From Escherichia coli (GTDB taxonomy: Bacteria; Pseudomonadota; Gammaproteobacteria; Enterobacterales; Enterobacteriaceae), in the NCBI RefSeq assembly GCF_003334405.1, contig NZ_QOWM01000051.1: 895 bases of DNA. The stretch is one strand, 5' to 3'. A program made the translations under genes and the position numbers. This document shows, piece by piece, positions 1-895 of this stretch. Below the pieces are notes generated by a model that worked only from the letters and a program-made list of their open reading frames with translations, was not told where the DNA came from and ran no database searches. Position 1 is the stretch's first letter, and each line of letters opens with the position of its first letter.

Positions 1-895
1 TGCGGTCCGTCTTCTCCGTCAGCCTGCCGTATTCATCGTGGCGGTAGACATAGTGCGCATCCTCCGCGATGCGGTTATCCGGCCACACTGTGAGTGTACT
101 GTCCGGGTGCAGCTCCGGGTCCGGCAGCCGGTTGCCCGCCGGGTCCGTGGCATACGGGATGCGGATGTCCAGGTCTGGTGCGAGGGTGCGCACACTCTCC
201 AGCCTGCCCGTGGCGCTGTAGCCGTATTCCCGCGTCTGTCGCGGGCCGCTGATGCGCACCAGGTCGCCGTTGTCACTCCACCCGTAGTCACGGTCATATA
301 CCAGGCTGTTCAGGTGCTGGCTCTGTAACTGGCCTGCGGGGGTGTATGTGCTGGTCAGTTCGTATGCGGCATTACTGCCTGCCATGCTGCCGAAGCTGCG
401 CACCGTCTCACGGTGCAGCCTGTCCCGCGTATACTCGACCAGCGGCGTCCCGCCCAGCTTCATTCCCGCCAGGTAACCGCTGCCATACGTCAGCCACTCC
501 ACCGGCGGCAGGCTGTCCGGCGTGACGCGGTTTGCCAGCCCCTGCTCGTTGTATGCGTGTTTCGTCTCATGCTGCCACAGCAGTTCCCCCGTCTCCGGGT
601 TCTCCACCGTCTGGCATTCGCCGGTCAGGCGGCCTTTATCGTCATAGCCATAGTGGACGGCAACACGGTGGCCTTCGCTCAGGTGGCTGATGTCTGTCAG
701 CCAGCCGTGGCCATCATACTGCCACTGCTCTGCCGGTTCGCCGTTCACCGTGCGGTGAGTGATACGGTCCGATTCATCGTAGTACCAGAGGATGACAAGT
801 CCCTCATCCTCACTCTGTGTGAGTTTTCCGGTCAGGTCATAATGATAACGTTGCGTCCGCCCGTCAAAGCCGCCCTGCTGTACCAGCCGGTCCAG
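1..895 (-). CDS. rhs: Internal fragment, partial at both ends, of an Rhs-family YD-repeat core protein (polymorphic toxin, T6SS-associated or contact-dependent class). Complete codons occupy 2..895; position 1 is the first base of the next codon.
   Basis: Hand translation of the reverse complement starting at position 895 gives 298 codons with no stop: [298 protein letters not shown]. It contains repeated YD-repeat motifs (Y-x-Y-D-x-x-G-R/K-L-T) at roughly 20-25 residue spacing and is rich in Tyr (21), Asp (25), Gly and Trp (7), as expected for an Rhs/YD shell. From memory it closely matches the conserved E. coli-type Rhs core (rhsA/B/C/D family). The paralog cannot be assigned because the cores are near-identical and the distinguishing C-terminal tip is not in the window. 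No database search was run. Confidence 0.92.

Follow-up and report, generated by a model that had tools for sequence, protein, structure and literature searches.

Consecutive YD-repeat units in the middle of the Escherichia coli RhsD core: a protein-level repeat predicted to build part of an Rhs shell

The stretch of DNA analysed here, referred to as the window throughout, comprises 895 nucleotides from Escherichia coli and is 100% identical over its whole length to a part of the rhsD gene of E. coli K-12 MG1655 and of many other strains. The minus strand is open throughout in frame 0, from nt 895 to nt 2, and the 298 amino acids encoded there map to residues 665-962 of the 1426 residues of K-12 RhsD (b0497, WP_000014739.1), which is the same gene and presents no difference from the window. 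The annotated rhsD gene enclosing it is 4,281 nt long and occupies 4607-8887 of the locus record. The window has a GC content of 62.8%, with a GC3 of 77.5% in the RhsD frame; the longest alternative open reading frames (38-328 and 346-525 on the plus strand, and 19-297 in another minus-strand frame) match no NCBIfam family and are what a gene of 63% GC produces. A search of the window for RNA families returned only a sub-threshold match to snoR113 (19.6 bits against a threshold of 47, E = 0.21), which was rejected as a chance match. Inside the coding sequence there are also a single sigma-70-like consensus match and a single terminator-like hairpin, for which shuffles give means of 0.2 and 0.4 respectively.

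Matches to the window occur in 3,871 of the 5,426 complete E. coli genomes, at a median of 5 places per genome, and amount to 20,470 places, 12 of them on plasmids. The K-12 paralogues show repetition at the scale of the genome, not within the gene: rhsA and rhsB are 77.4% identical to the window and rhsC 76.6%, while a 174-nt fragment in ybfO, downstream of rhsC, is 80.5% identical. The paralogue rhsE is 94.8% identical, but only over nt 1-690 of the window because rhsE is a 5'-truncated pseudogene.

The translated window matches the NCBIfam equivalog RHS_core (NF041261) with E = 3.4e-195 and 651.3 bits over profile positions 669-965 of 1261. This score is as expected of a fragment, full-length RhsD covering profile positions 1-1261 with 2787.7 bits at a curated cut-off of 2000. 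An earlier note on this DNA, made from the letters of the window, had read periodic YD motifs in the minus-strand translation and named a scan with YD- and RHS-repeat profiles as a check; TIGR01643 (YD_repeat) does match the window, with 22.8 bits at a curated cut-off of 15.8, and matches the whole of RhsD with 158 bits in 6 stretches. The Pfam RHS_repeat profile (PF05593) gives five weak matches in the window (best i-E = 0.0017, none at E <= 0.001). In RhsD residues 1-1200 it gives eight matches with E <= 0.001, Pfam having been run on the protein in two pieces, and strong copies lie just upstream of the window part, at RhsD residues 413-678. The whole protein also matches Rhs_assc_core (TIGR03696, 82 bits) and the Pfam families RHS (PF03527) and DUF6531.

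Outside the window, RhsD carries the autoprotease motif DPxG-x18-DPxG as DPMG-x18-DPMG at residues 1232-1257, with the PxxxxDPxGL motif reading PLQQIDPMGL at residues 1249-1258, and its C-terminal tip is a DUF4329 domain (126 bits), a family referred to as an RNase motif in one in-silico paper (PMC7216683). The GC content is 63.3% in the rhsD core, 36.5% in the C-terminal tip and 51.8% in the flanking chromosome, a sharply mosaic composition that is the classic contrast between Rhs core and tip (PMC2935791). At the N-terminus the Pfam PAAR_motif is matched at sub-threshold level (E = 0.28, residues 3-20), and the N-terminal cleavage motif, reported as PVxxxxGE, reads PVNPLLGA-K at residues 48-55 (8723-8746 of the locus record), with Ala-Lys in place of Glu as in RhsA from Pseudomonas protegens (A312/K313), a protein that still cleaves. 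Directly downstream of rhsD is ybbC, a small gene of the YbbC/YhhH family, for which an immunity role would be expected from its position, since it has no NCBIfam match. Beyond ybbC lies an orphan fragment in which the final 86 residues of an Rhs core (85 bits to Rhs_assc_core) are combined with a different tip; it is a displaced 'silent cassette' such as Jackson et al. 2009 reported (PMC2935791).

Table 1. Features of the window and of the surrounding rhsD locus. Positions are those of the window unless the locus record is named; aa, residues of the translated window; E, strand; independent profile, a YD profile built on RhsD residues outside the window.
Feature	Position	Strand	Basis and remarks
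Internal rhsD CDS fragment	2..895	-	Mid part of Rhs core (shell); frame, identity, RHS_core profile
YD unit 1	818..847	-	aa 17-26; model EEE-----EE hairpin; independent profile match
YD unit 2	758..787	-	aa 37-46; model hairpin
YD unit 3	695..724	-	aa 58-67; model hairpin; Pfam RHS_repeat 60-92
YD unit 4	623..652	-	aa 82-91; independent profile match; model hairpin
YD unit 5, degenerate	530..559	-	aa 113-122; family consensus HxYxxLGxR; model hairpin
Unit 6, non-canonical	464..493	-	aa 135-144; 3-residue turn
Unit 7, non-canonical	404..433	-	aa 155-164; R157, D158, R162 and E163 invariant in alignment
YD unit 8	323..352	-	aa 182-191; independent profile match; family consensus YDxxGRL; model hairpin
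YD unit 9	257..286	-	aa 204-213; Pfam RHS_repeat 206-236; model hairpin
YD unit 10	197..226	-	aa 224-233; independent profile match; model hairpin
YD unit 11	125..154	-	aa 248-257; D251, A253 and N255 invariant; model hairpin less well defined
Long variable loop, units 11-12	53..124	-	aa 258-281; pLDDT <50 at aa 265-274
YD unit 12	17..46	-	aa 284-293; independent profile match; model hairpin
Sigma-70-like match and terminator-like hairpin	839-867 and 607-632	- and +	No supporting evidence of function
DUF4329 tip, ~120 C-terminal residues	locus record ~4610-5100	-	Pfam
Orphan Rhs core-end fragment and ybbC	locus record 3489-4175 and 4199-4567	-	Annotation, NCBIfam

YD repeats have long been described in the E. 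coli Rhs core (PMC2935791), and the published definition of the motif is the YDxxGRL(I/T) repeat of E. coli Rhs proteins from Hill and co-workers, as cited in a later structural paper (PMC10684867). Ten such motifs had been listed for the window, and each translates exactly as written at its position. When the window is aligned with 24 homologous segments (28-80% identity to the window), drawn from 2,195 matches among 1.84 billion representative proteins searched, the resulting family consensus places twelve units in it (Table 1). The ten listed motifs are all real, but the list itself was incomplete, units 6 and 8 having been missed, with YTPAGQLQS among the missed motifs; unit 8 is also picked up by the independent profile. 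The alignment moreover sets the register, unit 9 being the in-register part of the 16-residue motif listed at 251..298, and the motif listed at 521..553 being overlapped by unit 5. The period of about 60-75 nt given in the earlier note holds for five of the nine intervals between its ten motifs and fails for the other four (60, 63, 72, 99, 120, 135, 72, 72 and 102 nt). Counted over all twelve units, neighbours lie 20-36 residues apart (median 22 residues, 66 nt), and eight of the eleven intervals fall within 60-75 nt. The longest spacing, of 36 residues, is accounted for by the loop between units 11 and 12, which is gapped and variable among homologues. Units 5-8 and 11 diverge strongly from the YD consensus.

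An AlphaFold2 model of the isolated 298-residue fragment, built from the homologue alignment, is beta-rich as the earlier note had anticipated, with 24 strands, no helix and a mean pLDDT of 87.2. All twelve units are predicted to fall on a strand-turn-strand pattern in which the turn begins at the D position of each YD, the predicted turns comprising five residues in eleven units and three in unit 6. When the model was compared with the PDB by Foldseek, the top 39 matches were all Rhs, Tc BC or teneurin shells, the best being Tse5 from Pseudomonas aeruginosa (8CP6, E = 2e-16). The model superposes moderately on real shells (TM ~0.56, rmsd ~9.5 A), values from which the curvature of the fragment model is taken to be unlike that of a real shell. 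The relationship is also apparent at the level of sequence, where the window aligns to residues 571-826 of Tse5 with E = 2.6e-23, and to 8QJA, 8UXT and 7Q97. The placement of the motifs at sharp turns agrees with what has been described for solved relatives: the Tse5 shell consists of 40 hairpins with the consensus YDxxGRLV, in which the turn is made by DxxGR, torsional freedom comes from the glycine, and the tyrosine points toward the cavity and bonds with the leucine of the repeat before it (PMC10684867), while in the Salmonella and Advenella cores the YD motif lies at the transition from strand to sharp turn (bioRxiv 10.1101/2024.02.26.582050).

A frame of high GC content that is rich in Y, D, G and R might throw up such motifs by chance or composition, with no true repeat behind them, and the weakness of the Pfam RHS_repeat matches in the window, together with the strong degeneracy of several units, would be in keeping with this. 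The self dot-plot of the translated window (BLOSUM62, 10-residue windows, score >=20) nevertheless contains 59 off-diagonal windows at or above the threshold, compared with 12.3 +/- 6.4 in 300 composition-preserving shuffles (z = 7.3), none of which reaches 59, and for 56 of these 59 the lag matches a distance between two units, against ~20% expected by chance. A YD profile built by iteration solely on RhsD residues outside the window, a strict regular expression having yielded too few training copies, scores 23.2 bits on the window with six positive matches, while 500 shuffles average -3.1 bits and never exceed 5.6. The mean identity of one unit to another, in register, is 19.6% as opposed to 6.4 +/- 0.8% for random in-frame segments, and the motifs, which are sharpened by the family consensus, correspond one-to-one to the predicted hairpin turns. 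On these grounds a chance or compositional origin is refuted, and we give it practically no weight; the repetition at the protein level is real and beyond chance. Both signals whose absence the earlier note had named as evidence against its reading, a YD/RHS profile match and periodicity in the dot-plot, are present, and each of the checks that it proposed turned out as it had foreseen. An older view would take the YD repeats as an exposed array that binds ligands or carbohydrates at the surface, instead of an encapsulating shell, the wording of Jackson et al. 2009 for the YD-repeat domain being 'associated with carbohydrate binding' (PMC2935791). We consider this very improbable for RhsD, since all homologues of known structure that the window matches, whether by sequence or by fold, form a closed shell, the structural papers place the conserved tyrosine toward the cavity, and the full gene has an autoprotease motif and a toxin-like tip.

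A repeat in the protein could also reflect a recent tandem duplication of DNA, or a slippage-prone tract serving variation of length or phase. The weak short direct matches, which are the only dispersed repeats in the window (13-23 nt at 70-87% identity), and the nucleotide identity of 36% between units against a background of 29% could be read in this sense. Tandem Repeats Finder (TRF), however, finds nothing at a score of at least 30, as the earlier note had maintained in stating that tandem repetition is absent at the DNA level, and no 10-mer recurs within the window. The 9-mer CAGCCTGCC does occur at 20-28 and 200-208, and both copies read G-R-L in frame (G290-R291-L292 and G230-R231-L232 respectively), but it had been presented as the sole exact recurrence, which is incorrect: seven 9-mers recur, a number at chance level (mean of 5.5 in codon shuffles, 153 of 500 of which reach seven). 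Where two units have an amino acid in common, they encode it by the same codon 42% of the time, compared with 51% expected from codon usage; since codon sharing does not exceed this expectation, the excess nucleotide identity is attributed to the conserved amino acids. The claim that the units have diverged at the nucleotide level is upheld by these results, and at the sensitivity of the TRF, k-mer and codon-sharing tests a duplication or slippage origin is refuted, to the point of being a negligible alternative.

With the identity to rhsD, the family profiles, the solved relatives, the model and the Foldseek matches all pointing the same way, the reading of the motifs as beta-strand repeats of an Rhs/teneurin-like shell is well supported, and we assign a probability of about 0.96 to the interpretation that the window, as RhsD residues 665-962, consists of YD hairpin units of a toxin-enclosing Rhs shell. 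The window covers about twelve consecutive units in the central part of the Rhs core. For each of them a beta-hairpin is predicted, in which an aromatic-x-aromatic pattern would close the first strand, D-x-x-G-R would make the tight turn and L-T would begin the return strand, so that hairpin after hairpin would extend a single unbroken antiparallel sheet, which would spiral into a closed shell in the complete protein. The hairpin architecture of the window itself is a prediction of the model, whereas it is from homologues that we infer a closed shell, an RhsD tip enclosed in it and then released, and delivery. Rhs shells comprise three beta-helical turns, are sealed by plugs and release a C-terminal toxin after aspartyl autoproteolysis (PMC8765631); by homology with these solved effectors, the RhsD shell would hold the DUF4329 tip after aspartyl autoproteolysis at DPxG-x18-DPxG, with the product of ybbC as the putative immunity protein. 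The units are ancient in this reading, with only those residues retained that determine the fold, so that no trace of the repeat is left at the level of DNA.

Among the relatives of known structure, Tse5, a type VI secretion system (T6SS) Rhs effector, is the best for the window, with ~29% identity and the hairpin repeat in common, and its shell encloses a cleaved C-terminal toxin. It differs from RhsD in its tip, which is pore-forming where RhsD has DUF4329, and in being delivered by a known T6SS. RhsA from P. protegens (7Q97), Tse15 from Acinetobacter baumannii (8UXT) and the cores from Advenella and Salmonella bongori (8QJA-D) match by both sequence and fold, at 16-25% identity, and differ in their N-terminal modules, which include a prePAAR/TMD, a clade domain and a VgrG fusion, the Advenella relative 8QJA being a VgrG-Rhs protein. 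More distantly, the Tc toxin BC components (4IGL, 6H6E) and the eukaryotic teneurins (6FB3, 6FAY) have the fold of the YD-hairpin shell in common with the window (Foldseek E = 1e-10 to 1e-7), but are no more than 10-16% identical to it. A Tc shell makes four turns and is divided between two proteins, while teneurins carry a toxin-like domain outside the shell, uncleaved (PMC8765631). Membership of the teneurins or of Tc BC was considered and rejected for the window, as only the shell fold is shared and RhsD is a bacterial single-chain Rhs protein with an RHS_core equivalog. To our knowledge, E. coli K-12 has no type VI secretion system, and the delivery of RhsD from K-12 is uncertain for this reason.

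Units 6, 7 and 11 are the furthest from the YD consensus and yet the best conserved in the window, the mean frequency of the top residue among orthologues being 0.80, 0.81 and 0.77 respectively, compared with 0.48-0.68 in the other units. The block YGSGHL...RDxLHRE, spanning units 6 and 7, recurs in Tse5 (as YGxGHLHG...ERDxLHRE), in P. protegens RhsA and in Tse15. No mention of it was found when the text of the Tse5 paper was searched by residue numbers that were derived by hand from the sequence alignment, and that of the Tse15 paper by terms relating to conservation. It is conceivable that in T6SS-type Rhs shells the block marks a functional site specific to this position, a suggestion that we put forward tentatively and regard as rather less probable than its opposite; at such a site the shell could touch the N-terminal plug or anchor, touch the unfolded toxin, or open. 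Alternatively, the block may be simply an irregularity of structure.

All three elements, rhsD itself, its YD motif and the shell fold, have been published already, and the window is K-12 reference sequence. As a discovery the finding matters little, motif and shell architecture being textbook knowledge for Rhs toxins; its value is one of calibration, as a case in which a repeat that exists at the level of the protein and leaves no trace at that of the DNA was recognised from the sequence alone.
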